This document shows positions 1-60,020 of a stretch of 64,000 nucleotides of DNA, one piece after another. The stretch's first letter is position 1. Every line of letters starts with the position of its first letter. Source of the stretch: Candidatus Latescibacterota bacterium (GTDB lineage: Bacteria > Latescibacterota > UBA2968). A program made the translations under genes and the position numbers. A model generated the notes under the pieces. The model was not told the origin of the DNA. It ran no database searches and saw only the letters and a program-made list of their open reading frames with translations. Where the stretch lies: NCBI GenBank assembly GCA_965116885.1, contig OZ220741.1, forward strand, positions 4,224,001 through 4,288,000, read 5' to 3'.

Positions 1-464
1 TCACGCTTTATTGTGACCGTCTTGACACTATCTACATCGAACTTTCTGCTCTTGTGGTATCTGAATACGCACTTGCCAATACGCACTTTGTTACGCTCAA
101 GGAATTTGTATCCAGCCTGTTTCAGCGTATAGGACTTGTATTTGAGCTTGCTACGGAATTGTGGTGGTCGCTTATTATCTCTATCAAAGAATTTCTGATA
201 GCCAAAGTCTATACGCTCAATCACATTTTGCAATGCCTGGCTCGGCAACAGACGCCAATGTGCAAAGCGCGTTGTCCTTTTCAGCTTTGCCAAATGGTTA
301 ATCATTGTGAACTTACTCGGATACTTATTGAATCTCTGGTAGTATCGCTTATGCAAGTCAATGAAATGATTATACACACCAGCAAAGGCGTCTATATCTC
401 TATGGATATACTTATTGCGGTCACAGCGACTATACATCTTGTATTTGTATGTTAAGTATTCCAT
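1..464 (-). CDS. tnpB: IS200/IS605-family TnpB RNA-guided endonuclease, N-terminal part (truncated by window edge)
   Basis: Manual translation from ATG 464 is open to the edge: MEYLTYKYKMY...FAGVYNHFIDLHKRYYQ...LAKLKR...LPSQALQNVIERIDFGYQKFF...PPQFRSK..YKSYTLKQAGYK...VKTVTIKR. This has the TYKY, VYN, SQxLQ and P.F.S motifs typical of the TnpB N-terminus. Confidence 0.85.
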   Translation of the reverse strand, partial: MEYLTYKYKMYSRCDRNKYIHRDIDAFAGVYNHFIDLHKRYYQRFNKYPSKFTMINHLAKLKRTTRFAHWRLLPSQALQNVIERIDFGYQKFFDRDNKRPPQFRSKLKYKSYTLKQAGYKFLERNKVRIGKCVFRYHKSRKFDVDSVKTVTIKR

Positions 465-685
465 AGTATAAATATACACAAAAACAGTAACTTATGCAAG
501 TTTTGTGTGGTCTGTGAGCGGATGATTCTGATTGATGAAGTGCTGGCGCACTTGTACACCGCTCCACCGCCCATATCGCCTTGTGCGATATGCCACATGC
601 TAAAGTACCACACCATAAAGGCGAAGCCCTTCGCCATGCGACCCAACGCTAAAGCTCTCTGCGAGTGGGTCTTACGGGCTTGTTA
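1..685 (-). mobile_element. Left part of an IS200/IS605 (IS1341-like, tnpB-only) element with subterminal hairpins
   Basis: tnpB plus upstream hairpins CATATCGC-cttgt-GCGATATG (572-592), GGCGAA-gccc-TTCGCC (620-635) and ACCCA...TGGGT (641-670). No tnpA upstream. Boundary approximate. Confidence 0.6.
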
Positions 686-37092: not shown

Positions 37093-37128
37093 TAAGTCAT
37101 GATCAAAAAAACATTGCGGGAGGTCAAT

Positions 37129-40897: not shown

Positions 40898-41194
40898 CTA
40901 CTCGTCCAAAGGCTCATGCAATGCTTTCTTGATCAGAACGCCAGCTTTGAAATAGCTCTTTCGCCGCGCAGGAACATAAACAATCTCGCCTGTGCGGGGG
41001 TTGCGTGCAGCGGGTTTTGGTTTGGTCGGCTTGATGCCCAGCACACCAAATCCCCTGATTTCGATTCGGTCACCGGCGATCAGGTTTTCGCGCATCGTGT
41101 TAAAAAGTGTATTTACAATCTCATAAGCGAGTTGTTTTTTGATTCCCAGACGATCGGAAATTTTTAACGCGATATCTTTTTTTGTCATTGTCAT
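40898..41194 (-). CDS. HU/IHF family DNA-binding protein
   Basis: MTKKDIA...RIEIRGFG....ARNPRTGE...VPARR...FKAG; GGGAGGA RBS. Confidence 0.92.
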   Translation of the reverse strand: MTMTKKDIALKISDRLGIKKQLAYEIVNTLFNTMRENLIAGDRIEIRGFGVLGIKPTKPKPAARNPRTGEIVYVPARRKSYFKAGVLIKKALHEPLDE

Positions 41195-41353
41195 TCGGTC
41201 CTCCCATTTCACATATATTGTCACGACATTGGCTAATATAGCCCTAAACATCTAAGATGCAAGATAAAAATGTCTCACACTCGTCACAAAATTGAAAAAT
41301 TGCTTTTGCTTTGTATGTCGCTTATTTTATTATTGTTAGCGAGGATAATATAC

Positions 41354-42181: not shown

Positions 42182-42212
42182 GGTGGGGAAGAAGGTCTCG
42201 CATCCCTCTATA

Positions 42213-42240
42213 AGCGGTTGGGCCAATTGGCCCAACCGCT
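42213..42240. repeat. Perfect 28-bp palindrome
   Basis: AGCGGTTGGGCCAATTGGCCCAACCGCT is its own reverse complement. Confidence 0.9.
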
Positions 42241-42255
42241 AAATTTTGCCGTCTA

Positions 42256-42272
42256 TGGGAACACTATTTGCA
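42256..42272 (+). promoter_or_regulatory. Candidate sigma-54 promoter of the ABC/RND operon
   Basis: gGGAACACTATTTGCa: GG-N10-GC with TTGC, 47 bp before ATG 42319; imperfect -24 box. Confidence 0.45.
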
Positions 42273-42318
42273 AATTTCAGGTCTAATCGTTGGCAAAGGT
42301 AAATGAGGAGCCATACGG

Positions 42319-43212
42319 ATGATCATTCGGATTTCAAACCTGACAAAAATATATCGCCGTGGCGCGGTTCCCGCCCTGGATGATGTCACATTGACCATTC
42401 CTCACGGAACATTTGGTCTGCTGGGACCCAATGGTGCGGGCAAGACAACGCTGATTAAAATTTTATCGACTCAGATGGACGCATCGAGCGGCAACGTGAC
42501 CATGGATGAGTTTGACCTCGTAAAAGACCGCACAGAAATTCGCCGGCGCCTGGGATATTTGCCCCAGCACTTTGGGACGTATCCGCAATTGACGGCCTGG
42601 GAATTTCTCGATTATATGGCTGTTTTGGGCGGCATGCATAATAGAAGTTCGCGTTTGAATCGCGTGGAGCAAGCTCTAAACGAAGTCGGCTTGTACGAAG
42701 CGCGCAATCGGCGTTCGGGCACATTTTCCGGTGGCATGATGCGCCGCCTTGGTATTGCACAAACCATTTTGACCGATCCAGAGTTTCTCATTGTCGATGA
42801 ACCCACCGTAGGACTCGACCCGGAAGAGCGCATCCGATTCCGGGGGATTTTGGGACGCTTGAGCAGCGATCGTGCAATTTTGATTTCCACGCATATTGTG
42901 GGCGACATTTCAAGCACCTGTGAAGATCTTGCGGTTTTGGATACCGGCCGGCTGATCTTTCGCGGTTCTCCCGGAGAACTCATTTCAAAAGCCGATGGCA
43001 AAACGTGGGAAGTACAGGTTGATGACGCTGGCTTTGAAATGCTGTCGCGTGTGTTTCGCGTGGTCACAGTAAATGTTGAGGGCGACATGATGCGTTTGCG
43101 TATGGTGGGCGATGGCGAGCCACCCGCTGATGCCGAAGCAGTCGCGCCCAATCTCGAAGATGCCTATGTCTATTTTGTCGGAGGCGATACCACAGGCGAA
43201 ATTGCCGCTTAA
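42319..43212 (+). CDS. ABC-2-type transporter ATP-binding protein
   Basis: GPNGAGKTT, YLPQ, FSGGM, IVDEPT, STH, C-terminal PNLEDAY. Confidence 0.93.
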   Translation: MIIRISNLTKIYRRGAVPALDDVTLTIPHGTFGLLGPNGAGKTTLIKILSTQMDASSGNVTMDEFDLVKDRTEIRRRLGYLPQHFGTYPQLTAWEFLDYMAVLGGMHNRSSRLNRVEQALNEVGLYEARNRRSGTFSGGMMRRLGIAQTILTDPEFLIVDEPTVGLDPEERIRFRGILGRLSSDRAILISTHIVGDISSTCEDLAVLDTGRLIFRGSPGELISKADGKTWEVQVDDAGFEMLSRVFRVVTVNVEGDMMRLRMVGDGEPPADAEAVAPNLEDAYVYFVGGDTTGEIAA

Positions 43213-43226
43213 AGGATTAATACACT

Positions 43227-46200
43227 ATGCTATCTATTTTTTACAATGTATGGGGCGTTGCGCGTTATGAGCGCAAAATGCTCTTGAGAACCACAAAATT
43301 CCGTATTTTGGGCGGCCTGGGTATGAGTATTCCCGTTTTGCTCGGCATCGGCTTTGCCATAGCAGAGGCCAACGGTGCTGAGCTACCTGTGGGCATTGAT
43401 TCTTATGTTCCATTTTTGGTGTACAGTTTCTTACAGACTATTGTCATTGCATTTATTGTGGGGGATTTTAGAGCAGCGGATGAACAGGCACATATTTACG
43501 AAGTTGTAGCCGGGCGTCCCATTTCAACTGCGGAGCTGGTTGCGGGTAAGTATCTGGGCATTGTTAGTGCGCTTATCTTTTTGAGCCTGGGCGTTCTACT
43601 TTTAACCCTGAGTATCCAGGCTGCAAAAATCAGCATGACGGGTAATCCATTTACAATAAAACCCTATATCAGCTACCTCGTGCTCATGAACCTGCCCGCC
43701 CTGATTTTTATGTCTTCTGTAACATTTTTCCTGGGTGCAGTGTTGCGACGACAAGCGGCAGTTGCTCTGATAGTGATCGGATATTTGCTGGCCGTCCTGT
43801 TATTCCTCGGCAGGCGATATGACGGCATCTACGACTTTGGTGCTTTTTTTACGCCTCTGTATTATTCCGACCTGATTGGTCTGGCAGATATTACGCAAGT
43901 GGGACTACAACGCCTGTTTTACATCTTACTCGGCATTGGATTTTTTGGCTTTTCAATTGATTGGTATCCCCGTCTTGCACATTCCATAGTCGCGCGGTGG
44001 TTTGGCCGAGGATGCGCGCTGACCGGTTTTGGTCTGGCTGTGGGCCTTTACTTTTATATGGATGCAGACGCGCAAGACGGGAAAGCGTATCGCACCTCGT
44101 TGTTAGAGCAACAGGAAGCAGTTGCGAATATTTCCGTCGCGGAAATAACCCATTACGATCTGGCATTGACGCTTTTGGGAGAGGAGCCGCTTGCTGCCTC
44201 AGGTACGATTAGATTGAAAAATCCCCACGAAGCGCCACTCGATACGCTGATTCTTTTGCTCAATCCCGGATTTAAAATCCAGAGTCTGATGCGCGGCGAT
44301 GGCGGCACAATAGCGTGGGAGCGGATGGGAAGTGTGATCCGCGTCGTGCCCGACAACCCTCTGCAATCGGAGCAAGCACTCGATCTGACATTGGCTTATG
44401 CGGGTGATATTAACACAGATGGTTTTGATCTCCAACGAGAAAAAGCCAGACCAAAGTTACGCAAACGCGAAGGGCCATTTGGTATATTTAATAAGGGCTC
44501 TTTGACGGCGTGGATTCGCGACAATTCCATCTTTTTGCCTCCGCGCAGCCGATGGTATCCCGTAACGGGCGTTGATTACGGCTATGAAGATGCGCGTGCG
44601 GTCTCTTTTTCAACGGCAAATTTGCAAATAACATATCCGCAAGGCATCGAAGTCATTACTCAGGGGCAGGTAGGCGAGGCTGATACGCTCGGCACACAGA
44701 TAACGCGCCAATGGATCGTCGAAAAACCCGTGCCCGTCCTGTCGCTAAATGCAGGCGAATATCGCGTTTATCGCGCGACCATTCACGACGTCGAATGCGC
44801 CCTTTACGCCCATCCATCCCATCTGCGTCCGGTCCGATTTTTTGAAGGTGCCGAAGAAGAGATTTTGCGTGCGCTTGAGCAAATCATGGACGCAATGGAA
44901 CAAGAATCGGGCATGAAATATCCCTATCCCAGTCTTTCTTTAGTAGAAATCCCCTTCCATGTTCAATGGTATTACGAAGGCTGGGAAGAAAAGGGCGGGT
45001 TGACACAGCCCGGCGTGTTGATGATTGAAGAGGATGTGTTCATGAGGCAGCAATTTACCCGAGATTTTAAGCGTTCTCAAGAGCGCTCACGCGGCAATCG
45101 TGAACCCAAAGATATTAAAAAAGATCTTTTGGTACGCGCTGTTTTTTCGACCTTTTTTTCCAGAGAAGGAAATTCGGGTAGGCAGGGACAACCCGGTGGG
45201 TTATTTCGCAGCCCTGTTGTTCAACTCTGGGCTTATGACAAGCAGTTTGTGGGCGAACATCATTCCCTTCTCAAAAAGGGCATGCCCCTGTATCTCCAAA
45301 ATGATTTGAGTTCCAATATGACCTCTGCTTTTTATTCGAGCCAACGACGCGGTGGTGGTGGCGATAGGGGGCGTGGCGGTCGCGATGGTCCCGGTGGGCG
45401 CGGTGGTCCCGGTGGGCGCTTCGGGTCGGGCGGGGGATCGGGTGCTGCCTGGGATACGTTAATTGCGAAAATGCAGCGAAAGTCGTTTGCCGATTTGAAT
45501 CCCGAAAAGCAAGCCGGCCTCTATCGCCAGGTTCTCGACGCCAAGGGGCCCGCACTTTTTCAAATGATGGAATCTTTTTTGGGGGAGGAAACATTTCGCA
45601 CGGTCTTAGACGACATAGACCACAATCACAAATACGAAAACATTGATTTTTCGACCTTTGAACGCGCTGCTGTGGGCGATACCACAGAAAGTGCAGAGAG
45701 CCAAAAATTGCAACGCCTCGTCAACGACTGGATTTTCAGTACAGAAATCCCGGGCTATACTCTTACAAGGGTAAAAGCCCTGAAAATGGACGACGGATTT
45801 GGAATGGTGGTCTATCAATTGATTCTGAGAATTAAGAATAGCGAACCGGGCAGGGGATATGTGCAAATTACGGCTACGGGGCGAGGCGATGAAGCCCTGA
45901 AGGGCGTAGAGATTGAAGGCGGACAGGAAATTGAAGTGTCGATGGTCTTGTGGGAACAGCCCTTCAGGGTGATGGTCGAACCCTTTTTTGCACGCAATCG
46001 ACGACCTCTTATGTCACCCGTGCGCGTTCCCGAAGATGTCACAGAGGGATTTCCGGTCGCTTATGTCAAAGACGTGACGGGCGAAGAGTCTGGTCCTGTT
46101 GAGATTATTGTAGATAATGACGACGATGAATTTTCTATGCCCGTGCGACGTGCAACGCGCTACTTCCGTCCGGGACTCAAAGGCGGCAACTGGCGCGAAC

Positions 46201-46715
46201 AAGGCCTGCCAATGGCTTTCGGACGATTTGAGACAAATTATCGAAGAAAGTCTCAAGGGGATGGTGCACAGCCTGCGGTTTGGGCAGCGCAAATGCCCAG
46301 AGACGGCGAGTTTGATGTAAGTTTCTATTTTGTCGATCCCGCAATGGCCAGGCGCATTCGAATTGCATCGACCTTTACACTCACGGTTTTTCACGGGGGC
46401 AAAGCCGATACACTCGAAATAGAACGCGACCAGATGAAAGCGGGATGGAATTATCTGGGGCGATACAAATTTACCGAGGGCGAAGAAGCCGCAGTCGAAT
46501 TGTCTGACCGCGCGGAAGGGCGAGGGGGGCTCTATGCCGATGCCGTGCGATGGCGCTTTTTTGATCCGGAAAACCCCGATGCCTACGAAGATGAAATGCC
46601 CACCTTTACTGGGCGCGGCAGAGGTGGACCAGGTGGTGGGCCTGGGGGGCGCGGCGGGGATGGTAGGCGAGGTCCCGGTGGTAACAGAGGTGGCGGCGGG
46701 TTTTTGGGCTTTTAA
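43227..46715 (+). CDS. ABC-2 permease fused to a degenerate M1-aminopeptidase-like region and a Golvesin/xanthan-lyase CBD-like domain
   Basis: N-terminal multi-TM region (RPISTAELVAGKYLG); ITHYDL..L, RWYP, YPYPSLSLVE and KG..LF.M (M1-like, no HExxH); C-terminal IIVDNDD...GWNYLGRY.F...ADAVRW. Confidence 0.75.
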   Translation: MLSIFYNVWGVARYERKMLLRTTKFRILGGLGMSIPVLLGIGFAIAEANGAELPVGIDSYVPFLVYSFLQTIVIAFIVGDFRAADEQAHIYEVVAGRPISTAELVAGKYLGIVSALIFLSLGVLLLTLSIQAAKISMTGNPFTIKPYISYLVLMNLPALIFMSSVTFFLGAVLRRQAAVALIVIGYLLAVLLFLGRRYDGIYDFGAFFTPLYYSDLIGLADITQVGLQRLFYILLGIGFFGFSIDWYPRLAHSIVARWFGRGCALTGFGLAVGLYFYMDADAQDGKAYRTSLLEQQEAVANISVAEITHYDLALTLLGEEPLAASGTIRLKNPHEAPLDTLILLLNPGFKIQSLMRGDGGTIAWERMGSVIRVVPDNPLQSEQALDLTLAYAGDINTDGFDLQREKARPKLRKREGPFGIFNKGSLTAWIRDNSIFLPPRSRWYPVTGVDYGYEDARAVSFSTANLQITYPQGIEVITQGQVGEADTLGTQITRQWIVEKPVPVLSLNAGEYRVYRATIHDVECALYAHPSHLRPVRFFEGAEEEILRALEQIMDAMEQESGMKYPYPSLSLVEIPFHVQWYYEGWEEKGGLTQPGVLMIEEDVFMRQQFTRDFKRSQERSRGNREPKDIKKDLLVRAVFSTFFSREGNSGRQGQPGGLFRSPVVQLWAYDKQFVGEHHSLLKKGMPLYLQNDLSSNMTSAFYSSQRRGGGGDRGRGGRDGPGGRGGPGGRFGSGGGSGAAWDTLIAKMQRKSFADLNPEKQAGLYRQVLDAKGPALFQMMESFLGEETFRTVLDDIDHNHKYENIDFSTFERAAVGDTTESAESQKLQRLVNDWIFSTEIPGYTLTRVKALKMDDGFGMVVYQLILRIKNSEPGRGYVQITATGRGDEALKGVEIEGGQEIEVSMVLWEQPFRVMVEPFFARNRRPLMSPVRVPEDVTEGFPVAYVKDVTGEESGPVEIIVDNDDDEFSMPVRRATRYFRPGLKGGNWREQGLPMAFGRFETNYRRKSQGDGAQPAVWAAQMPRDGEFDVSFYFVDPAMARRIRIASTFTLTVFHGGKADTLEIERDQMKAGWNYLGRYKFTEGEEAAVELSDRAEGRGGLYADAVRWRFFDPENPDAYEDEMPTFTGRGRGGPGGGPGGRGGDGRRGPGGNRGGGGFLGF

Positions 46716-46732
46716 TTTAAGGGAGGCTGGAC

Positions 46733-47800
46733 GTGAAGTTTGATTTTTGCTCAAAATTTCTGTTGGCAATTGTCCTTTGTGGGATAGTCGCCTGCGATCA
46801 ACAGGCGGAACAGCGCACAGTTGATCTGACGGTCCCCGTTACTGTTCAATCCGTAGAGACGGGAACAATAGAATCCATTGTGACAGCTACCGGAACACTC
46901 AGGCCCGTGCGCGAAGCCCAGATTACAACGGAGATTCGGGGAAGTCTGTACTGGAGCAAAGGGGGTAACAACCGCTTGCTCGCCAAAGGATCAGAGGTTA
47001 GAAGGGGGCAGACTATAGCCAGGCTCGACAGCGATGAATGGGTTGTTGGGGCGCGGGTGGAAGCGCGCAAACTGGCGGTTGAAACAGCCAAGCGAACGCT
47101 AAAAGAACAGGAAACCCTGTTTAGCCGACAACTTTCAACGGAAATGGCCGTTGAAAGTGCGCGTAGAGCCTGGGCCGATGCAGAAGCCAATTATCAGGAT
47201 GCCCTCATCAAGATCGATAAAACTAAGCTTTTAGCCCCCATTCAGGGCGTGCTATCGGAACTCGCGGATATTACGCAGGGAACGCTGGTGACTCCGAATA
47301 CCGCAATTGCGAAAATTATGGATTATTCACAGGTATTTGTCGATCTGAAAATCCCCAATGCCCAGATTATTAATGTGGAATTAGGCCAGGGTATCCGCGT
47401 GAGCAATTACGCTTTGCCCGAAGAAGTTTTTGAGGGCGAAATTGTCGAGATGGATCCGGCTATTGATCCGGTCACGCGCACGGTTCAGGTCGTCGGAATG
47501 GTCGATAATCCCGACTTGCTGTTGCGGGCGGGGATGTTTGTCAAAACAGAAATAGTCACGGAATCGCGGCAAAATGTCGTACTTATTACGCGCAATCTCG
47601 TTTTGCGGCGGCGAAATCAGAAGGTCGTTTTCGTCGAAGAAGAAGGCCGCGCACAACAACGCGAAGTCGAAACAGGTCTGGAAGACCGAGACCGCGTGGA
47701 AATTGTGGTAGGACTTGAACCAGGTGAACAGTTGATCACGAGCAATTACGAAACGCTGAGGCCGCGAACTCGAGTGCGGGTCACGGGAGATAGACGATGA
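46733..47800 (+). CDS. RND efflux periplasmic adaptor (membrane fusion protein), lipoprotein
   Basis: Lipobox IVAC, ATGTL, APIQG, IDPVTRT, LRAGMF, V.TG....VEI..GL..GE. Confidence 0.92.
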   Translation: MKFDFCSKFLLAIVLCGIVACDQQAEQRTVDLTVPVTVQSVETGTIESIVTATGTLRPVREAQITTEIRGSLYWSKGGNNRLLAKGSEVRRGQTIARLDSDEWVVGARVEARKLAVETAKRTLKEQETLFSRQLSTEMAVESARRAWADAEANYQDALIKIDKTKLLAPIQGVLSELADITQGTLVTPNTAIAKIMDYSQVFVDLKIPNAQIINVELGQGIRVSNYALPEEVFEGEIVEMDPAIDPVTRTVQVVGMVDNPDLLLRAGMFVKTEIVTESRQNVVLITRNLVLRRRNQKVVFVEEEGRAQQREVETGLEDRDRVEIVVGLEPGEQLITSNYETLRPRTRVRVTGDRR

Positions 47801-50800
47801 ATTTGCCTGAATTTTCAACGCGATATCCCGTGACAATTGCCATGGCGACCCTCGCAGTAGTGTTGCTTGGCTGGATATCGCTGGACGGTTTGGGCACTGA
47901 TCTCTTGCCGGATCTTCAGACGCCAGTCGTCACCATAGACCTGACAGCACCGGGCAAATCGCCTGTCGAGATCGAAGAAAACTATACGCGTCGCCTCGAA
48001 CGCGATGTGAGCACGATTAACGGCGTCAAGCGCGTCTATTCGATTACCCGTTCAGGACAGGCCGTGGTCATTGCAGAATTTGCCTGGGATGCGGACATGG
48101 ATTACGGGTTGCTCGACGTGCAAAAAAGAGTGGGGCGCTATGCGGTCAATGAAGATGTATCACAGTTGGATGTGACGCGCGAAGATCCGCTCTCGCTTGC
48201 GGTGATGCGCATTGCGATTACAGCAGACGAAAACGCGGAACTCGACGCATTGATGGGTACGGTAGAGTTGTTGATCAAACCCAAATTGGAAGCCCTCGAC
48301 GGCGTGGCGTCTGCCGAGGTGGAAGGGGGAGCGGAAAAGGAAGTGCGCGTTACACTCGATCCTTATTTGCTCGAAGCGTTTGGGCTTTCATCCGATGCGG
48401 TCATCAATCGCATCGCACAAGCAAATGCCGATGTATCCGGAGGTACGCTCAGAGAAAATCAGCAGTCGTATCTGGTCAAAGCCCTCGGTCGCTTAGATGA
48501 CATAAACGATGTGCGGGAAGTCATCGTGGGAGAAAGGCGCGGGGGAGGGGGCACAGTTTCTGGCGATCGCGTGCCGGTACGCGTGCGCAACGTGGGCACG
48601 GTTGACCTGGAATATCAAGAGCGAGAAACCATTGTGCGCCTCGACGGACGGGAATGCGTTGGCCTCGCTATTTACAAAGAAGCCGGCAGCAATACAGTCG
48701 CCGTGGTCAATACGGTATTGGATGCGATAGACGATATCGAAGCAGACCTGAGCGGCATGCACTTCACAACCGTCGAAAACCAGGCGCGATTTGTCGAAGA
48801 CGCCATAGGAGAAGTCGAAACATCTGCCATTCACGGGGCATTTTTGGCGATTCTCGTGCTTTTGATCGCGTTGCGGAGCTGGACAGTGACGCTGGTGATC
48901 GGGTTGGCAATCCCCATTTCCGTATTGGCGACATTCACGCTTATGTACTTTGAGGGTTTGACCCTGAATATTATGACACTGGGTGGATTGGCTCTGGGCG
49001 CGGGCATGCTCGTTGACAATGCCATTGTGGTCATTGAAAATATTTATCGCCATCTCGAAAGCGGCGAGGATGCGCGCACAGCGTCGAGCCGCGGTGCCTC
49101 TGAAGTCGGCGTGGCAATTTTGGCTTCAACGCTGACGACCGTGGCTGTCTTCTTGCCCATTGTCTATTTGCAGGGGCTGGCGGGCAAACTCTTTGTGGAT
49201 CAGGCATGGACAGTTGCATTTTCTCTGTTGTCTTCTCTGGTTGTGGCAATGACGACGATTCCGATGCTGACATCGCGCATCTTTAGACGGTTGAATACGA
49301 CGCACAAAACGACTGTTCGGTCGGACAAATACTATCGGTTTCTCAATGGTATTTTGAACCGCAAACTCATCATGCTCGGCGTCGTATTGCTCATTCTGGG
49401 CGGAACCGGGTATATCGCCCGCGAGTTGCAGACCGAATTTATCCCGCGCGAAGATCAAGGGCTATTCCAAATTGACCTCACATTGTCCGAAGGCTCGCGT
49501 GTGGAACTGAGCGATCAGGTCGCCCTGCACGTCAAAGAGATTGTCGAAAGCGTTGGCGGGAGCGATGTGGCGCATGTGTACGCGCTGACCGGCCTCAACC
49601 CCGCTCGGATATCGACCGGAGGCGAACCGACGGGTCCCAATCGCGCGACTCTATCGGTGGCGTTGCACACACAGCGGTCGCGCAGCGTCAGCGAATTGGT
49701 GCGCGACCTGGATCCCATTTTAAGTGCCATGCCCGATATCGAAGTGAAATACAAGCTGCACGAAACCGCGCTTGAAGGCGTGATGGGAGGACAAGAAGCA
49801 CCCATTCAGGTCGAAGTGTCCGGGGAAAATCTCGATATTTTGGCGCGTATCACCAAAGAACTTCAGGCGAGGATCGAGGGTCTTCCCTCGGTGTATAATG
49901 TGCGCACGAGTTTTCAGGGCGGGCAGCCAGAAGTCGATCTGGCGATTCGCGATGAGGTAGCGGCGGCATTCGGATTGACCACCCAGACCATCAGCCGCAC
50001 ATTGGAAAGACAACTATCCGGTGAAGTTGCTGGCGAACTATCTAAAGACCAGCGCACGCGGGATATCCGGGTAAAATATCGAGATATTGATCTGCGCGAA
50101 CTCCACACCATGCAAATCGAAGGAACAGATGGCGCGATCCTGACGTTGGGGGATATTGCCGAGCTCAATATTATTGAAGGTCCCCGCGAAATTTTGAGAG
50201 AAGATCAGCGTCGCGTAGGGCGCATTACGGGATATCTCACAGAAGGACGCATTTTAAGTGAAGCCGTTGCCGACGTACGCGCCACCATGCAGGAAGTGGT
50301 TGTGCCGTCGGGGTATCGCGTTGAAATTGGCGGGGAAGAGCGCGAACGTGCAGCGTCATTTGAAAGTCTCAAATTCGCACTTCTGCTTTCGATTGTGCTG
50401 GTCTATATGGTTATGGCGTCGCTATTTGAATCCACGCTCCATCCATTCACAGTCATGTTTTCCGTTCCATTAGCCGGCGTCGGCGTGATATTTGGATTCT
50501 ATCTTTTAGGTGAACCGCTCAGTGTGATGGCTTATATCGGCATCATTATGCTGGGCGGTATTGCGGTCAACGATGCGATCATTCTCGTGGATCGCATCAA
50601 CCAGCTCAGGCAAGCTAGCCTGACGTTGCGAGAAGCGATCCTACAGGGCGGTCAGGACCGCTTGCGCCCCATTATGATGACGAGTGCGACGACCATTCTC
50701 GCCCTGCTGCCCATGGCACTCGGTTTTGGCGAGGGGGCAAAATTGCGCGCACCGATGGCTATAGCCGTCATTGCTGGCCTCGTAACATCGACATTGATGA

Positions 50801-50862
50801 CCTTACTCGTAATACCCACCATGTATGAACTGGTTGACCGACTTCGGAGGAAATCCGCGTGA
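47797..50862 (+). CDS. AcrB/SwrC-like RND permease
   Basis: [14 protein letters not shown] (TM4), [29 protein letters not shown]. Confidence 0.93.
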   Translation: [1021 protein letters not shown]

Positions 50863-53800
50863 CACTTGCTGGTATTGCCGTTCGGCGGCCCGTGACCACG
50901 GCCATGTTTTTTCTTGGTCTGGCTATTTTAGGCGCGATTTCTCTGGATCGATTGCCCGTTCAGATATTTCCCGAACTCGTCCGCCCGGAGGTCTTTGTCA
51001 CAGTCACTCAGCAGGGCTATTCGCCCGAACAGGTCGAGCGGGAATTGGTGATGCCCGTCGAGAGAGAGGTGGGCAAACTCGAAGGCATTGAGGCGTACGA
51101 ATCCTTTTCTCGCCAGAACAATGGCGGGGTACGCATTTCCTACGCGCCCAATACGGATATGAAATTCGCCCTGTTGCAGCTCGAAAGCCGCATCACGCGC
51201 CTGCAACCGCTTTTGCCCGAAAGAGCGCGGGTCAACATACAGCGCTTTGATTCCTCTGATCTGAGTGCTTCGGTGATGCAAATTCACGTGTTGGGCGAAG
51301 GCGATATAAACTGGTTGCGCGAATTTGCCGAGGAGAAAATCAGACCGGAATTGGAAGCGGTCGATGGCGTTGTCAACGCGCAGGTCCTGGGCGGGCAAAG
51401 GACGGCTATTGAAATTATTGTCGATCCATTGATGCTGCAGGCGCACCAGCTTTCGATGTCTGATGTTCGCAATCGCATCAATGCGTTTAATACGCGACGA
51501 CAATATCTCGGGCGAGTGTACGACGGCGACCAGGCTTATGCGGTCAGCATTCAGGGCCAATTTACAGACCTCGTGCAAATCCGCAGAGTCGTGATCAAAC
51601 CCGAATTGCCCCTGCACCTGGGCGACATTGCCAAAATTCTCTACGGCCTTCAGGAGCGTACAGATCTGCAACGCATCAATGGCAAAGCCGCCGTTGGCAT
51701 CCGCATTCAAAAAGACGATGAAGCCAATCTCATCGAACTTGCAGGAGAACTCGAAGACACCATCGAACGCGTCAACAGCGATCTTGCATACGAAAATATC
51801 CAACTCGTGATCAGCCAGAATCAGGCAGAGATTATGAACGAAGCCCTCAATTTCCTCAAACGGGCCGCTGTTGTCGGGGGATTGCTCGGGCTTTTTGTTT
51901 TGTTCTTATTTTTGAGAAATCTGCGCTTTGTCGCTGTTTTGCTCCTCGCCATTCCGTGTTCTTTGTTGCTCACATTTAATCTGATGTATATGTGGGATCT
52001 CAGTTTGAACGTGCTCTCGATGTGCGGCCTCGCGCTTGCAGTTGGCATGTTGATGGACAATGGCATTGTGGTCATGGAAAATATTTTCAAGCATTTTGAA
52101 CAGGGCAAATCTCCCAAAGAAGCCGCAAAAGCAGGAACCGATGAGATCGCACGCGCCGTTGTTGCGGCAACCGCGACTACAATTACTGTTTTTATACCCG
52201 TAGTTTTTATTCAAAGCGACTTTCAAGATATCCTGCGAGAATTCGCGCTGTCCATCGCCTTTCCTCTGCTTGCCTCTCTGCTCGTAGCCCTCACACTTGT
52301 GCCTGCCCTCGCATCGAAAACCCTTTCTCTCGCATCTCGACCACCGACGGGAACAGGCGCATTGATCGAGATGTACACGGTGTGCCTCAAAGCGGGCTTG
52401 CGCCACAGAATTAGCGTGTCACTGGGTATTGTCGGCGCGCTTGTCATCACGTTGATCATTTCTTTTTTCTTTATGCTACAACAAGATATCCGTCGTGAAG
52501 AAAGCCGTTTTACCGTCTATATCAGCATGCCCGAAGGCACGACTATTGAAGCCCTTGATGCTGTTGTTGGCGAAATTGAAAGTGCTGTGCGAGATCTCAA
52601 AGGTATAGATCGCTTTACGACCAGTATCAGCGAAACCCAGGCGAGTATCAATGTGGAACTTTTGCCCTTATCCGAACGCCCCGACCAGATTTCTGTCGAT
52701 CTCATCAAGGAAAATCTCGAAGAGTCATTCGGTGATGTCCAAAATGCGATTGTGAGTTATGAGGCCATCGCGCGCACGGGCAGGGGAGGTGGTGGGGGCC
52801 GAGGGGGAGGCGGGGGAGGCGGTATTCGGGGCACCCGTCAGGCCTCGGGCGGATTCAATCTGGAAGGGGGCGCGCCTTCGGAAATGGCTGTCATTCGCGG
52901 CTATGATTTTACGGTGCTTCAAATGCTTGCCGACGATCTGGTCTATCGCCTCGAAGAACTGGAGGAAATCGATCCGAATAGCGTAAGAGCCGATGCAGAA
53001 CGCGGCGCATCCGAAGTGCATGTGTTGCCCGATGAGGAAGTAATGTTTGATCGGCGATTGCAGGTGCGCCAAGTGCTCAATGCCGTATCCGACGCCAATC
53101 CGCGCGGTGCGCGATCCAATATTTCATTTCTCACGCCCGAAGGCACAGAAATCCCGATTGATGTTCGCAATGTCGAAGACCCCGAAGAAGAGGGGGAGGG
53201 GATTGCGGGATTGAGACAGACGCCGATTCTGGGTACGGGAGGGACTTACATTCCCCTTGTGGAAGTTTCGCATGTGCGCCGGGATCAGGGCAGGAGTATG
53301 ATTTTGCGCACCGATCAATCGCGGCGCGTGATTGTCTCGTACCGCTTTGCCGAAGAAATTTTGCAGTCTCAACCTCTGCTGGAAGCCTCCCGCGCCTATG
53401 TGCAAGCCGTGGTCTCTGAAATGGTGCTGCCCGAAGGGTATAGCATCGAAATGATCGAGGCAGAGGAAGAGACGATTTATTACTGGATGATGGGCATTGC
53501 CGCTCTATTGATTTTTATGATTTTGGCCTCTTTGTTTGAATCGCTTTCCGCGCCTGTGATTATTTTGTGTACGTTGCCCGCAGCAATTATTGGATCGTGC
53601 TGGGCACTGATCTTATCGGGGACGGGATTGACCTCGCAAGAAGCGCCAATGGCACTGTTGGGACTTATTGTTTTGAGCGGTATTGCCGTCAACAATGGGA
53701 TCGTGCTGATCGATGCGATTGAAACCCTTCGCCGCCGTGGGTTCAGGCGAGAACGCGCGGTGCTCACGGCGAGCCGGTCGCGCGTGCGTCCTGTTTTAAT

Positions 53801-55583
53801 GACTTCGGCAACCACCATTTTGGGCATGTTGCCTCTGGCACTCATATTTGGCGGCGATTACGAAATTTGGCCCCCCTTTGCGATTGTGGTAATCGGAGGG
53901 CTGGCTGTTTCAACGGTTTCCACCCTCGTATTTATTCCCGTGGTGTACATGGGAATTGATCAGACCAAAGCCTGGTTGACGGATATTGGGTGGTTCGGGA
54001 TCGTATTGGGAACAACGGCAGCCGCGGGATTGACATATTGGGTTGACGGTTATTACCAGAGTTTGTTCTGGACCTGTCTTTTGGCATTGCCAGCCTGGAT
54101 GTTGTGTATGGGTGTAATCTGGATAGTGCAACGCATTTATCGCGCGCGTATGGCTTCTCTTGCCGAGATCGGCAATATTGAACATCTCGAAATTCGCAAT
54201 CTGACCAAAATTTATGGCGCGCCGGGACGATTTAAGCACGAATGGGATCGCTTTAAGCGGCGTCATCAGCGCCTTTTAGAGCGCGGGCAGGTATTGATAG
54301 ATAAAAAGGCTATTAAGGACAGTTTGTGGTGGAAGTTACCACTTCTGGCACTTTTGATTTATTTGGAAACCTATTTTGAACAGGGAGCCTGGATATTTTT
54401 GGCAGGGCTTGCTATATGGGGCCTCGTGCATCACCTCATACTATGCGCGGCAGCTTTGCGCGATTTTCAGATTGAGAACAGATGGATATCACAAATCGCC
54501 CGATTGATTTTGCCGCTGGTCTTTATCGCCTTTATCCATTGGCGTTTGGAACTTATATCTTTGACCATCGCCACTACTGCAATCTACTTGCTCTATCGCA
54601 TCATCGGGTTTTTGGCAAATCGCGTTGGACAAGGTCGCGTTGACCCCGAGCATATACCGGGCAAATTAGGCCCTGTTAAAGGCATCGTGTACCGCGGGGC
54701 GGCAGCCGTTCCCCTGATTGGCGTTCCGCGCCCACAATTCCAGGCTCTCGGCGGTGTGAGTCTCGATATTCCGCGCGGGATGTTTGGGCTTTTGGGCCCC
54801 AATGGCGCGGGCAAGACCACGCTGATGCGGATTGTGTGTCGGGTTTTGTCGTCAAATTACGGGTCGGTACTCGCCAATGGCACAATACCGCTTACACATC
54901 GGAATATGCAGGGGGTGATTGGCTATTTGCCGCAGCACTTTGGCCTGTATCTGCACATGTCTGCGTATAATTATCTGGAATACCGCGCGCTTTTAGAGGG
55001 ATTTAAGGATGGGGTCGCGCGGCGCAAGCGCGTTCAAGAATGTCTGGAGCAGGTCAATCTGTGGGATAGGCGAGACGATCTGATTGGTTCGTTCTCTGGC
55101 GGTATGAAACAGCGCGTGGGCATTGCACAAACCCTGCTGCACTTACCGCAGATTATCGTAGTGGATGAACCGACAGCGGGATTGGACCCACTCGAGCGTA
55201 TCCGGTTCAGAAATCTGCTGGCGCGATTTAGCCAGGAAAAAATTATTATTTTTTCCACACATATTGTCGAAGATATTGCGGGCAGTTGCAACCGATTGGC
55301 CGTGCTGAATCACGGTAAGCTGCTTTATACGGGAACCCCGATTGAAATGCGCGATTTGGCGCGCGATAAGGTGTGGGAGGCTCTGCTGCCAGATCCGCGT
55401 TTTGAAGCACTGGAACGCGACCTGGATATGATTACACATGTGCGCGTGCCCGATGGGATTCGGGTGCGGTTTCTCGCCACTGATCCCATCCCAGAAGCGC
55501 GTGCTGTTGCGCCCACCCTCGAAGATGCGTATCTCTACCTTTTGCGACATGGCGATGAATACAAACAGTCTAACATGGCGTGA
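50859..55583 (+). CDS. RND permease fused to a C-terminal ABC ATPase domain
   Basis: Full RND ([22 protein letters not shown]), then extra TM helices, then an NBD with [27 protein letters not shown], STH in one continuous 1574-aa ORF. Confidence 0.92.
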   Translation: [1574 protein letters not shown]

Positions 55584-56283
55584 GTTGCTTTTCTTTGTCG
55601 GGAAAATGCACAGTCTGAGCATGAGAATCGTTTTTCACCGCAAAATGATTTTTATGTTTGGCGGGATTGTCGCGTATTACGCAATTTTGTACGCGATTGC
55701 AATCTGGCGTCCAGGTGAAGGGCTTTCAGTCGAACAAGCCCTCCATGTATTGGTTGAAGTGCCGGGCACGGTGCTTGCAATTTACCTGACGATGGATCTG
55801 GTGTCGGGGGAGAGGGATAAGGATACGCTTGAAATTCTGTTCAGCACGGCGGTCAGCCACTACGCGACCTGGGCCGTGAGAATTGTGTCGATCAGCGTTG
55901 CGCTATTTGCCACGCTGATGGCAATGAGCACGATTTCCTACTATTTTTTTGCGGAGTTTCCCTATCTCCTGGGGGGATTGAATGCATGTATCCCTGCCTT
56001 TTTTATGGTAGGAGCCACATTTCTGTTTTCTGTCTTGTGTCGCAGTGGCAATGCGGCTGGCATGCTCGCCGTTGGCCTTTTGATTGCGATTTTGCTTTCG
56101 ACGGAGGCGTTTGAGGATACATCGTATTACCTTTTTCTCAAGCCATTTGACCCGCCTTCAGATTTAGATACCAGCCTGTGGGTAAATCGCGTGGTCTTAA
56201 ACCGCGCGGGCATTGCCATTCTGGGAATACTGTTCATTTTTCTCGCTCTGAGACGAATGATAGACCGCGAAAAGCTGCTGTGA
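55549..56283 (+). CDS. ABC-2-type permease
   Basis: About 6 TM helices with ERDKDTLEILFS coupling-helix motif; overlaps the end of the RND-ABC gene. Confidence 0.8.
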   Translation: MAMNTNSLTWRELLFFVGKMHSLSMRIVFHRKMIFMFGGIVAYYAILYAIAIWRPGEGLSVEQALHVLVEVPGTVLAIYLTMDLVSGERDKDTLEILFSTAVSHYATWAVRIVSISVALFATLMAMSTISYYFFAEFPYLLGGLNACIPAFFMVGATFLFSVLCRSGNAAGMLAVGLLIAILLSTEAFEDTSYYLFLKPFDPPSDLDTSLWVNRVVLNRAGIAILGILFIFLALRRMIDREKLL

Positions 56284-56340
56284 TAGAGTCAAAAGCGTCC
56301 GCAGATGACGCAGATGAAAGTCAAAAGCAACATCCATAAG

Positions 56341-56376
56341 AAAGCCCCTTGTCAATACAGACCAGGGGGTTTTTTA
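56341..56376 (+). terminator. Intrinsic terminator of the ABC/RND operon
   Basis: AAAGCCCCTTGTC-aataca-GACCAGGGGG followed by a T tract. Confidence 0.75.
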
Positions 56377-56425
56377 TGCCATTATTCAACAAAACAAAAA
56401 CGCATCAACGAAGAAAAACAGCCCA

Positions 56426-56460
56426 AATCAGAAATACGCAAGTGCTAATCAGAAATACGC
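56426..56460 (+). promoter_or_regulatory. 14-bp direct repeat with 21-bp period (probable AraC-type operator)
   Basis: AATCAGAAATACGC at 56426 and 56447. Confidence 0.6.
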
Positions 56461-56691
56461 GAGGATTTTTTGAATTGCAATTACAGGTGTGATGGTGGTA
56501 TCATAAAAGAGCCGCCGACAAGACGAGAACAAGTCAACTGTCAGCGGCGGTAGTATCTCAAGCTGGGAACTTGAGAAGACTAAATGAAAAGTAACGACCT
56601 GAAGCGCGATTGTCAATATGTACGACTGCGTTTCATTGCACCTGAATAATGTGGTTTTAAAAATTTCACGGCGTACTGATGATGACAAAAG

Positions 56692-57498
56692 ATGGGCAAA
56701 CAGAAAATTCTTATTGCAGATCACGATTCCCGCGTTCTATCGACACTCACAGAATTTTTGAGTGATGAACCTTATGAGATATTCAAGGCGGCAAATGGAA
56801 TGGAAGGGCTTGACGTTTTAAGACGCGAGAAGATTGATCTTGCTATTGCTGAAAAGCATATCGCGGGTCTTGGTGGGATAGCATTTTTGAAGGCCGTGAA
56901 GGTAGAGAAAATTCAGACAAATATTTTGATCATGGGCGGGATTGAGCATATGGAATCAACAGAAAAAATACTCAAGAGTGGTGCTATAAGCGTACTCGAT
57001 AAACCCGTCAAGAAGGGTGACTTTTTGGCAAAGATCAAAGCATTTATGCCACCAAATAACGGCAGAAACTGGTCTGAGAACGGCCAGTCAGGATCGGAAG
57101 CCTCGCCTTCATACCCCGTCCCAGTACAGGTTTCACAAGACAAGTGGAAAACTGATTTGGAATCATTTTTGAATGAGCGTTACCACGATCCAGACCTGGA
57201 ATGTGATGTTCTCATGTGCTACTTCGATTTATCGCGGTCACATGTTTGTGCGCTATTCAAAAAATATTTTGACAAGACTTATCGTGAAGTATTGCGAGAG
57301 GTCAGAGTAGCACAGGTAGAGCGTTTCTTAAAAGAATCATCTCTGAGTGTGAATGAAATTGCACACCTGTGTGGGTTTCATTCATCAGATCGTTTGCGTG
57401 TGGCTTTCAAGAAGATACATGACATTTCTCCTACCCTTTACCGCAAAAAAGTTATAAGCGGAGAAATTCCAAGAAGGTCCGGAAGGTTCAAGCGATGA
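56692..57498 (+). CDS. Receiver-domain/AraC-family transcriptional regulator (atypical receiver)
   Basis: N-terminal REC fold (KILIADHD, A.NG.EGL, DLAIAE, LDKP); C-terminal AraC HTH (S.SVNEIA..CGF......FKK...ISP..YRK). Confidence 0.88.
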   Translation: MGKQKILIADHDSRVLSTLTEFLSDEPYEIFKAANGMEGLDVLRREKIDLAIAEKHIAGLGGIAFLKAVKVEKIQTNILIMGGIEHMESTEKILKSGAISVLDKPVKKGDFLAKIKAFMPPNNGRNWSENGQSGSEASPSYPVPVQVSQDKWKTDLESFLNERYHDPDLECDVLMCYFDLSRSHVCALFKKYFDKTYREVLREVRVAQVERFLKESSLSVNEIAHLCGFHSSDRLRVAFKKIHDISPTLYRKKVISGEIPRRSGRFKR

Positions 57499-60020
57499 AG
57501 ATTTTACATATTCTGGATGTTTCGCTGCCACACCGACAAAGCGGCTACAGTTTGCGAAGCCAATATATCATCAATACGCAGAAAGTCCTTGGCTTTGATC
57601 CTGTGGTGCTCACGCGGTGGGGCGTGTCTGAACAACTCGTGGATGGAGTTGAATATATCAACGATGTGCCTTATTTGAGAAATACTTCTGAATCATACAC
57701 AGCACGTCTGTCCGAACGTCTGGGCAAATTTCAATTGCCAGATACCCCACGAATCTATCGTGTGGGGCAGGAGCATCACTTTCGCAAGCGCGTTGCGCGG
57801 GCGATTGAGACGGAAAGACCCGATGTGTTACACGCGGCGTCACCGGGTAGAAATGCACAGGTTGTGATTGATATAGGACATCACTGTGGTCTGTCTGTGG
57901 TGTACGAGGTGCGGGGTTTGTGGCACGATAGCGGTGTGGCGCAGGGTATGCTGGCTCCCGATTCAGAGGTGTATCGCCAGCAGCACGCGCAACATGTCAA
58001 TGCGATGCAACAGGCCGATGCTGTGGTGACGCTGTCCGAGGTGTTAAAAGTTGAGTGCATACGCGAAGGGGTTGACGAAGAGAAAATTGGCGTAGTGCCC
58101 AATGGTGTGGCAGTTGAGCAATATGCACCGAAAGATCGGGCCGGCGAACTTGCCAATCGATTGGGTATTGAATCGGGCGATGTGGTGTTGGGCTATATCG
58201 GTCTGGTGCGGTCACTGGAGGGATTGCGGTTGTTGTTGCAGGCGTGTGAGGTTCTTCGCGGGCAGTATGCCAATCTCAAAGTGTTGATTGTGGGGGGTGG
58301 ACGAGACCTGCCAGCATTGCAGCGCGAAGCACAGAAACGCGGTCTGGCGGATGTGGCGATTTTTATGGGTGAAATACCGCACGATCAAATCGCGGACTAT
58401 TACGCGATGTTAGATGTTTTTGTGATTCCGCGTACGCGTAGCCGCGTTACCGAACTGGTCACGCCGATGAAGCCTTATGAGGCAATGGCGATGGAAAAAG
58501 CCGTTGTCGTCAGCGATGTAGCCGCACTCAAGGAGGTGGTTACAGACGGAGAAACCGGGCGCGTTTTTGTGGCAGATGATGTCGAAAGTCTCACCCAGAC
58601 GTGTGCCGAACTCATCGAGAATCCCTCGCTGCGGATGCAATTAGGACAAAAGGGCAGCGAATGGGTGCGGTCAGAGCGCACATGGAGGCAGGTTGTGGAA
58701 CGCTATCGCGGGATCTATGAGGCCGCGATAGCCGTTTGTCCTGCCCGTATGGAATGTGTTAATCAACAAGCAAAAACCCGCACACGCGTTGCATTTTACA
58801 GCCAGCATCTCATTGGCGTTGGGCACCATTTTCGCAATCGACAGATTGTCAATGAACTGGTCAAAACACGCGATGTGTTTTTTATCGATGGTGGACGTCC
58901 TGTTCCCGAGGCTGACCTCGATGAGCGGGTGACGCGTATTTCTCTGCTGCCCCTTCGCCTGGGCGCACAGGGTATTGAGTCTGTTGATAAAGAGCGCGAT
59001 TTGCAGACTGTGATGCGCGAGCGCCAGACACAGCTTGCCGACGTGATGGAGCAGATTCGCCCCGATGTGTTTTGTGTTGAGTTTTTTCCCTTTTCCCGGT
59101 GGTCGCTCAAGAGCGAGATTCTCAATACTATTGTCAGGCTCAATGAGATCAATCCCGGCGCGAAGGTGTTGTGTTCGCTGCGCGATATTCCCACGCGGGC
59201 AAAAAGCGATGTGTTGCAACCGACTGTTGCGCTTGCACAGAGACGCGATGGAGATGCGATGCGGTTTTATTCGGTGCCTTTTGGCGGGATACATCACGAG
59301 TATTTGGCTTTTAATCGGCGGTATTACGAGGAGGTTGTGCCCGTGTTGAATCAGTATTTCGATGCGGTGATGGTGCATGGCGATTCCCAACTATCCCGGT
59401 TGGAAGATCACTTTCCCTGGGTTGCTGATATCGGTATTCCCATCATTTATACGGGGTTTGTTTCTGAGAAACTCGAGAACGCATCTCGACCTGATGGTGC
59501 GCCGAATAGGTATGTGCTGGTCAGTGCTGGCGGTGGGGCTGAGGGGCTTGCGCTTGTTGCGCCGTGTATTGAAGCGTGGAAGCAATTGGCACAGGACAAT
59601 ACGCTCAACGGACGTGAGATGGTGATTTTTGCCGGTGCGTTTATCGAAGAGAAGCATTTTGACGCTTTGCGAGAATTGTGCGGTGATGGTCCGTTTCGCA
59701 TTGAGCGCTTTACGTCCAATTTTTTGGCGTGGATGAAATACGCAGATTTGTCGATTAGTCGTGCGGGCTACAATACGTGTATGAATGTGCTCGAGACACA
59801 GGTCCCATCGATTCTGGTGCCGAGTATTGCGATGGATGATCAGGGATTTCGCGCGCAGCAGTTGATGGGGTTGGGTATTGCCGGGGTGATACATCCCGAT
59901 CAAATAGGTGCGGGAAAGATGGCAAAAGCTATTGGCGAAATGCTCGCAAGTTTTGTGCCTGAACACCATCTATCTCTGGATGGTGCCGAGCAAACGCGAA
60001 AGTTTATAGAATCAGTCTAA
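57495..60020 (+). CDS. Fused glycosyltransferase: GT4 plus a second GT-B module (COG4671/GT28-like)
   Basis: N-half SGYSLRS, YEVRG.W, VPNGV, TPMKPYEAMA; C-half FYSQH..G.GH, E.FPF.R, SLRDI, VSAGGG, SRAGYNT. Confidence 0.88.
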   Translation: MKILHILDVSLPHRQSGYSLRSQYIINTQKVLGFDPVVLTRWGVSEQLVDGVEYINDVPYLRNTSESYTARLSERLGKFQLPDTPRIYRVGQEHHFRKRVARAIETERPDVLHAASPGRNAQVVIDIGHHCGLSVVYEVRGLWHDSGVAQGMLAPDSEVYRQQHAQHVNAMQQADAVVTLSEVLKVECIREGVDEEKIGVVPNGVAVEQYAPKDRAGELANRLGIESGDVVLGYIGLVRSLEGLRLLLQACEVLRGQYANLKVLIVGGGRDLPALQREAQKRGLADVAIFMGEIPHDQIADYYAMLDVFVIPRTRSRVTELVTPMKPYEAMAMEKAVVVSDVAALKEVVTDGETGRVFVADDVESLTQTCAELIENPSLRMQLGQKGSEWVRSERTWRQVVERYRGIYEAAIAVCPARMECVNQQAKTRTRVAFYSQHLIGVGHHFRNRQIVNELVKTRDVFFIDGGRPVPEADLDERVTRISLLPLRLGAQGIESVDKERDLQTVMRERQTQLADVMEQIRPDVFCVEFFPFSRWSLKSEILNTIVRLNEINPGAKVLCSLRDIPTRAKSDVLQPTVALAQRRDGDAMRFYSVPFGGIHHEYLAFNRRYYEEVVPVLNQYFDAVMVHGDSQLSRLEDHFPWVADIGIPIIYTGFVSEKLENASRPDGAPNRYVLVSAGGGAEGLALVAPCIEAWKQLAQDNTLNGREMVIFAGAFIEEKHFDALRELCGDGPFRIERFTSNFLAWMKYADLSISRAGYNTCMNVLETQVPSILVPSIAMDDQGFRAQQLMGLGIAGVIHPDQIGAGKMAKAIGEMLASFVPEHHLSLDGAEQTRKFIESV

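Follow-up and report, generated by a model that had tools for sequence, protein, structure and literature searches.

A gene joining a resistance-nodulation-division (RND) permease to an ATP-binding cassette (ABC) ATPase in one chain (RND::ABC fusion, P0001) is present in a 64,000-nt stretch of Candidatus Latescibacterota bacterium (contig OZ220741.1, positions 4,224,001 to 4,288,000; hereafter the window, whose own numbering is used below), and the nucleotide-binding domain (NBD) of its product is interrupted between strands beta1 and beta2 by an insertion predicted to contain four membrane-spanning helices. The source genome consists of one 5.56-Mb contig, in which the fusion is single-copy. 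Pfam recognizes a full AcrB-type RND permease (ACR_tran, E 1e-180), with PF00873, the family of the AcrB/MdtB kind, matching over 12 transmembrane (TM) helices and the periplasmic domains, and an ABC ATPase (ABC_tran, E 4e-25, residues 1299-1440); the PF00005 score of 89.3 bits, against a curated cut-off of 25, places the fused NBD among the ABC ATPases. We consider it fairly probable that this NBD is whole and active, that its A-loop strand is clamped between membrane anchors, and that the inserted hairpins are a membrane-spanning counterpart of the gate helix, linking ATP binding to the ABC-2 permease encoded downstream and holding an exporter against the RND pump.

An earlier note on this DNA had described an NBD split by about 174 residues, an insertion placed just after the A-loop tyrosine and a contiguous counterpart in a stand-alone ATPase, and all three statements were borne out. 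The beta1 segment occupies nt 54186-54218 (residues 1110-1120), while the beta2 side (QALGG and onwards) starts at nt 54741 (residue 1295) in the same frame, so that exactly 174 residues (1121-1294) separate the two parts and the insertion begins two residues past Tyr1119. The C-terminal 535 residues of the fusion (P0122, used for both BLASTP and AlphaFold2) are 45% identical to the stand-alone ATPase over the latter's residues 14-287, covering the NBD core and the C-terminal domain; since the alignment begins at residue 14, the first 13 residues of the stand-alone ATPase are left without a partner in the contiguous part of the fusion. Likewise, NCBIfam profiles match the stand-alone ATPase from position 1-4 and the fused domain from about position 14-17, and a profile built from 38 stand-alone homologues aligns its positions 15-290 to residues 1293-1566 (342.8 bits). 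When positions 2-13 of this profile were scored on each 12-residue segment of the fusion protein (1563 segments), the top segment was that at residue 1109 (15.2 bits, z 5.3), and the second best reached 9.2 bits. Among 136 long proteins, the best segment lies 191-257 residues upstream of Walker A in 129 and 263-289 residues upstream in 6 more, the sole exception being P0255, which matches the query over the NBD core only. The spacing from the tyrosine to Walker A exceeds 140 residues in 140 long and 27 mid-length proteins among those retrieved, and is 22 in stand-alone ATPases.

The AlphaFold2 model of P0122, calculated from a 110-row alignment (mean predicted local distance difference test score, pLDDT, 90.2; predicted template modelling score, pTM, 0.76), presents residues 1109-1119 as an 11-residue strand, and the insertion as a basic helix followed by four long hydrophobic helices and a short helix. 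The earlier note had proposed AlphaFold as a check on whether the distal segment forms the first NBD strand, and in the model it does, as solved NBDs superposed with VIA-align run from their own residue 1-2 onto model residue 67-70. For E. coli LptB (4p33_A), 229 of 235 residues are aligned with a root-mean-square deviation of 2.2 and a Z of 26.6 (model 69..525 on chain 2..236); for MJ0796 (1l2t_A), 216 of 230 are aligned, with chain residue 1 on model residue 70; and the best structural match is TM_1403 (4yer_B, Z 28.1). On this prediction, Tyr1119 provides the aromatic A-loop residue at the end of strand 1 of a complete NBD fold. In addition, residues 1040-1300 folded without the NBD core (124-row alignment, pLDDT 91.3, pTM 0.67) contain only two strands, at residues 1116-1119 and 1294-1298; as there is no other strand, each must be the pairing partner of the other. 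Profile scores and predicted folds together support the distal strand as the beta1 that completes the fused NBD.

The catalytic motifs had been read as intact and are so, with Walker A, the Q-loop Gln, the signature SGGM, Walker B with its Glu, the D-loop and the H-loop His invariant in 110 aligned sequences; the fused NBD, complete in the model, looks catalytically competent. The split itself is conserved as well, and the alignment of homologs shows insertion columns that are more than 90% occupied in the 110 relatives. Within the same 110 sequences, Trp1158 and Pro1285 are invariant, and Tyr1119, Pro1122, Glu1128, Trp1129, Trp1178, Gly1268 and Tyr1278 are nearly so.

As for topology, an even number of TM helices had been expected in the insertion, an odd one being the case that would separate both parts of the NBD across the membrane; four long helices are predicted, and their charges obey the positive-inside rule. 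Across the family (110 relatives), the predicted outer turns, three in number, measure 2-3 residues and hold a mean of 0.02-0.12 Lys+Arg, while the inner (cytosolic) segments hold a mean of 3.7-7.5, the family mean for residues 1121-1148 being 7.4. Starting from the cytosolic C-terminus of the RND part, the two helices before strand 1 and the four before strand 2 each return the chain to the cytosol, so the parity holds. The predicted fold, the even helix count and the charge pattern thus support, as far as prediction shows, the proposal of the earlier note that the NBD is stitched to the membrane from inside its own fold; at that level it is established that the NBD is split, that the split is conserved and that the motifs are intact, together with the predicted fold and the parity of the topology.

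According to the mechanism that we favour, the last 535 residues of the fusion would form a membrane-embedded ABC ATPase module, in which beta1, just beyond RND helix 12, would be clamped by two membrane helices before it and two inserted TM hairpins after it. The position right after the A-loop tyrosine, the GAPGR turn and the strongly basic helix lead us to read the insertion as a gate-helix-site insertion grown to 174 residues, that is, as a putative enlarged and membrane-spanning version of the gate helix. On binding of ATP and closure of the NBD, the hairpins would shift inside the membrane, and this movement might either gate the module or couple it to the ABC-2 permease encoded just downstream. 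An ABC exporter would in this way be held against an RND pump, and both would act on one substrate stream. The nearest families of the fused NBD are indeed ABC-2-type ATPases, of which it is a relative and not a member (GldA TIGR03522, 170.5 against a cut-off of 402.6; DrrA TIGR01188, 155.6 against 312.45). From the predictions above we infer the true membrane location of the helices, as well as their movement, partners and substrate.

Large insertions in ABC-type ATPase folds are found in Rad50/SMC and UvrA, but there they take the form of coiled coils or soluble domains and occupy different sites, and none of them is known to lie in the membrane. The stand-alone ABC-2-type ATPases (DrrA/GldA-like proteins, TM_1403 4yer and the one encoded in the window) share the catalytic motifs of the fused NBD and differ in their contiguous beta1-beta2. 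The closest parallel is offered by Wzt and TarH, ATPases of the type V exporters of lipid-linked polysaccharides and teichoic acids, which are likewise ABC-2-type systems with an insertion right after the A-loop tyrosine. Tyr11 stacks on adenine (PMC6379404), deletion of residues 18-40 abolished function (PMC13018209), and the gate helix of Wzt/TarH is described as essential, basic, located at the cytosolic membrane interface and moving with ATP binding (PMC6379404, PMC13018209). The fusion agrees with the definition of a type V gate helix given in PMC13018209, its insertion following right after the A-loop tyrosine. It differs in that the Wzt/TarH gate helix comprises about 23 soluble residues, whereas the insertion of 174 residues has four predicted membrane-spanning helices and its NBD is covalently joined to an RND pump. 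An insertion of about 30 residues at the same beta1-beta2 site of the beta-subdomain is also known from NBD1 of CFTR (regulatory insertion, residues 404-435; PMC2217481), which indicates that the site tolerates insertions; unlike the one studied here, that insertion is soluble, mobile, phosphorylated, eukaryotic and outside the membrane. In the literature outside subscription journals, no description of an RND-ABC fusion or of membrane helices inside an NBD was found; an insertion after the A-loop tyrosine is thus already known, while the four-helix version and its RND::ABC host protein are without description in the literature searched.

Table 1. Features of the RND::ABC fusion and of the surrounding gene cassette (window coordinates; AF2, AlphaFold2; aa, amino acids)
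Feature	Position	Strand	Basis or remark
RND::ABC fusion gene, P0001	50859..55583	+	1574 aa, single uninterrupted frame
RND permease part, residues 1-1039	50859..53975	+	ACR_tran; closest solved structure MdtB 9lyq_B, E 8e-72
Two extra predicted membrane helices after RND TM12, residues 1044-1066 and 1069-1101	53988..54161	+	AF2, hydropathy peaks
Predicted NBD strand beta1 ending with A-loop Tyr1119, residues 1109-1119	54183..54215	+	AF2, superposition, profile segment
Insertion between beta1 and beta2, 174 residues, 1121-1294	54219..54740	+	
Predicted basic cytosolic helix directly after the A-loop, residues 1124-1141	54228..54281	+	AF2; preceded by conserved GAPGR turn
Predicted inserted helix a, residues 1149-1172	54303..54374	+	AF2; moderate hydropathy
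Predicted inserted helix b, residues 1176-1200	54384..54458	+	AF2; mean hydropathy 1.89
Predicted inserted helix c, residues 1208-1230	54480..54548	+	AF2, hydropathy
Predicted inserted helix d, residues 1233-1257	54555..54629	+	AF2, hydropathy
Predicted short cytosolic helix back to beta2, residues 1271-1283, with conserved Tyr1278	54669..54707	+	AF2
Rest of NBD and its C-terminal domain, residues 1294-1574	54738..55580	+	Profile alignment; beta2 is residues 1294-1305
Walker A	54795-54821	+	Catalytic motif
Q-loop	54933-54935	+	Catalytic motif
Signature	55092-55115	+	Catalytic motif
Walker B with Glu	55149-55169	+	Catalytic motif
H-loop	55254-55262	+	Catalytic motif
Stand-alone ABC ATPase, contiguous beta1-beta2	42319..43212	+	45% identical to fused NBD
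1162-aa protein: ABC-2/GldF-like membrane part, weak M1-peptidase-like match, Golvesin_C domain	43227..46715	+	
Periplasmic adaptor (membrane fusion protein, MFP)	46733..47800	+	HlyD_D23; TIGR01730 RND_mfp 185.5 bits against cut-off 94.9
Unfused RND paralogue, 1021 aa	47797..50862	+	ACR_tran E 2e-230; 4-nt overlap with fusion gene
Small ABC-2-type permease, about 244 aa	55549..56283	+	ABC2_membrane matches below cut-off

The fusion gene belongs to a tight run of six genes, from 42319 to 56283 (Table 1). The small permease at its end, whose family counts 115 relatives, most probably has its start at either Met38 or Met40 within the listed open reading frame, giving an overlap with the fusion end of about 29-35 nt; in the loci L001 and L103 this overlap is 4 nt. 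Its matches to ABC2_membrane_2 (18.4 bits) and ABC2_membrane_3 (16.9 bits) stay below the cut-off, and its relatives reach 26.2 against 27.2. An unfused RND gene upstream and an ABC-2-like permease downstream accompany the fusion in all 7 other loci inspected, and the eight loci with the permease (window included) come from metagenome-assembled genomes (MAGs) whose labels name three phyla in addition to that of the window. An adaptor gene is present in 4 of these 7 loci (L001, L002, L117 and L118); in L089, L098 and L103 the flanking sequence stops within the first RND frame. The complete set of six is found again in L117 and L118, two genomes of the phylum, where the 1162-aa gene also stands beside RND genes (in the window it adjoins the stand-alone ATPase), and in L118 an outer-membrane factor gene follows. 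As well, a core of outer-membrane factor, then adaptor, RND, fusion and small permease is found in two Bacteroidales MAGs, and Acidobacteriota MAGs and one MAG labelled Gammaproteobacteria share the set of RND, fusion and permease. The order adaptor, RND, RND resembles that of MdtABC-type heteromeric RND pumps, MdtB being the nearest solved RND relative; two adjacent RND genes behind one adaptor, as in MdtBC, occur in the window, and the two RND frames are adjacent in the 7 other loci too. The MdtABC-type pumps differ from the cassette in having no ATPase and in carrying the canonical Asp-Asp and Lys relay.

Scans of positions 41000-57000 found nothing beyond shuffled sequences, either for promoters (23 vs 15.2 +/- 3.5) or for terminators (19 vs 17.8 +/- 4.4). 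Directly after the cassette lies a gene for a response-regulator receiver fused to an AraC-type helix-turn-helix domain (56692-57498), whose stretch has a G+C of 0.42-0.43 against about 0.52. It is followed by an 841-aa frame (57495-60020) joining a GT4-type glycosyltransferase (Glycos_transf_1 with Glyco_trans_4) to a Glyco_tran_28_C domain, and by a second GT4 gene (60033-61436). On the other side, a 1113-aa protein (37099-40440) matches the Lamin Tail Domain five times and, weakly, a FlgD Ig-like domain at its end.

The split fusion is widespread. Both Pfam families are present in 120/120 relatives among the matches listed, 109 of which are 1480-1700 aa long, and their source labels include Gemmatimonadota, Latescibacterota, Acidobacteriota, KSB1, Calditrichota and Bacteroidota; relatives of at least 90% identity come from MAGs labelled Gemmatimonadota or Latescibacterota. 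Cultured carriers exist too, for instance a relative named from Mangrovibacterium marinum. In a survey of 168 genomes of the window's phylum with a 201-residue query covering the strand plus the insertion (E <= 1e-8), 77 genomes had a match (30 of the 52 high-quality ones), including 20/20 genomes of the genus besides the window's own and 28/30 and 19/22 in the two nearest families. Most full phylum matches belong to open frames some 1570-1830 aa in length and no match has an internal stop, while the shorter frames (435-1504 aa) come mainly from fragmented assemblies. Among the short matches inspected, an unfused membrane-NBD module was not found. P0149 (526 aa) was rejected as such a module, lying on a 2.4-kb contig and having a 1567-aa member in its cluster, as was P0224 (539 aa), whose relatives at 53-58% identity lie inside 1598-1605-aa frames in the three loci inspected out of 22 (L089, L098 and L103); the other short matches start within RND sequence. 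A locus search based on generic Walker A/B patterns brought only 2 family members (L001 and L002) among its 80 loci.

RND::ABC fusions with a short loop were also recovered, eight of them full-length (1389-1451 aa; P0168, P0170, P0172, P0192, P0198, P0205, P0226 and P0259). In these, strand 1 is followed by only 23-52 extra soluble residues, and there are no extra membrane helices before or after beta1; complete ACR_tran and ABC_tran domains were found in 6/6 scanned (P0168, P0170, P0172, P0192, P0198 and P0259). The only near-full short-loop locus found, L122, is broken into short frames. In P0261 and P0267 (1311-1336 aa), the RND-like body is divergent and the NBD almost contiguous; P0267 (spacing 36) was assigned to the short-loop bin by script and is grouped with P0261 in the tree. 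In a quick, unrooted IQ-TREE tree of 91 NBD cores with SH-aLRT supports only, the NBDs of 31 split and 8 short-loop fusions group together with an SH-aLRT of 99 and are set off from 37 stand-alone ATPases, so that the fusion with an extended beta1-beta2 connection has one origin, and P0261/P0267 branch elsewhere, with P0239 and stand-alone ATPases (support 100). Within the fusion clade, supports of 32 and 59 give no order of the split and short-loop forms, and the tree is compatible with either a gain or a loss of the four helices.

Several other explanations were weighed. It is very improbable that the distal motif stands outside the NBD, as a chance look-alike or a relic, with the NBD working without strand 1 or borrowing another segment. 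The conserved Tyr1278, 35 residues before Walker A, sits in a loosely A-loop-like segment and could suggest such borrowing, but this segment is a helix in both AlphaFold2 models, and it is the distal strand that tops the profile segments in 135/136 relatives, holds Lys1117 (invariant in 124 sequences) and accepts the solved NBDs on superposition. A more serious alternative, though still an unlikely one, accepts beta1 as part of the NBD and the four helices as membrane-spanning, but has them merely hold the ATPase beside the RND pump and pass on no signal, the permease being coupled through an ordinary coupling helix. The evidence from fold and topology fits this passive role too; moreover, sequence conservation is weak in helices b-d next to that of the NBD, the module has no specific fold match, and related fusions work with a short soluble loop at the same site. 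However, anchoring would already be given by the covalent RND link and the two extra helices before beta1, Trp1158, Trp1178, Gly1268, Tyr1278 and Pro1285 of the insertion are conserved as described above, and the insertion site is known to move with ATP binding.

The RND part itself raises another possibility, which we regard as improbable, namely an ATP-powered or ATP-gated RND pump, in which the inserted hairpins would pack on the RND TM domain and transmit ATP-driven motion; the four inserted and two preceding helices would be a transmission element from the A-loop region, and a non-canonical proton relay would be replaced or supplemented. The canonical relay consists of Asp-Asp in TM4 and Lys in TM10, which we take to be D407, D408 and K940 in AcrB numbering. 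The fusion lacks it, as the corresponding residues of MdtB (9lyq_B) align to Asp-Asn and Asn, while the TM11 Arg and Thr are kept. The motifs of the fusion, Asp-Asn in TM4 and Asn-Asn in TM10 (52056-52094; 53664-53708), recur in 140/140 split and 7-8/8 short-loop fusions, and this strict conservation marks them as a lineage trait and not as decay. The non-canonical relay, together with a module that starts directly past RND helix 12, would suit an ATP-powered pump. Yet the unfused RND paralogue also has Asp-Asn in TM4, with Asn-Asp in TM10, so the pattern is a mark of this RND lineage and does not depend on the fusion; one Asp and the TM11 Arg and Thr are retained, and such strict conservation speaks for a different type of relay that works; and a dedicated ABC-2 permease always accompanies the fusion. 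The relay pattern may nevertheless leave room for an ATP contribution to driving the RND part. A Gly/Arg-rich low-complexity stretch, with runs of 5 and 7 Gly, was also observed in the periplasmic part of the RND protein (residues 636-680, 52764-52898), and the family consensus likewise contains a Gly-rich segment.

The proposal of a membrane-spanning gate helix coupled to the ABC-2 permease has, in turn, a number of points weighing against it. All structural evidence is prediction, and AlphaFold2 has a strong prior for completing the NBD fold. Inserted helix a has a mean hydropathy of only 0.38 (0.63 in the family) and carries charged residues. The inserted helices showed no detectable relation to a solved membrane fold: in a fold search with the membrane module alone against 48,161 chains, the best match covered 85 residues of MrpF (7d3u_F, Z 10.1), the top rows were generic helix bundles, below the level meaningful for helical models, and no type V transmembrane domain appeared among the matches, a likeness to one being still possible. 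A search of the ESM Atlas with the insertion alone returned no usable match. The inserted helices were rejected as a copy of the downstream permease (hhalign probability 0.3%), and the lack of a detectable relation between the two is a further objection. Contact between module and permease is weakly supported by complex prediction, with a score of 0.58 against 0.29 for the best control, at least 81% of contacts common to the runs and a partner pLDDT of at least 72. In calibration, this mark was reached by 116/157 solved complexes and 2/215 mismatches, and scores of up to 0.60 comprised only 18 of the 157 solved complexes and both mismatches; as NBD-ABC-2 complexes have already been solved, the pass may show likeness only. 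Moreover, the second ATPase and the second ABC-2-like protein of the cassette could be the real partners, and the symmetry of a trimeric RND pump does not agree with that of a dimeric NBD.

The usual picture of an ABC ATPase is that of a soluble cassette whose contact with its membrane partners is confined to the coupling-helix groove. In the fusion, the chain of the cassette is predicted to pass through the membrane within the ATPase fold, in the loop beside the adenine-binding tyrosine; if this is true, membrane helices could respond directly to nucleotide binding, and the gate-helix idea would be extended from a surface helix to a transmembrane element. If ATP did drive or gate the RND pump, this would add a third way of energising tripartite efflux. 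With RND and ABC, the fusion unites in a single polypeptide the two main classes of efflux engine of Gram-negative bacteria, and it does so within a conserved cassette of six genes; this makes the cooperation of both engines directly testable.

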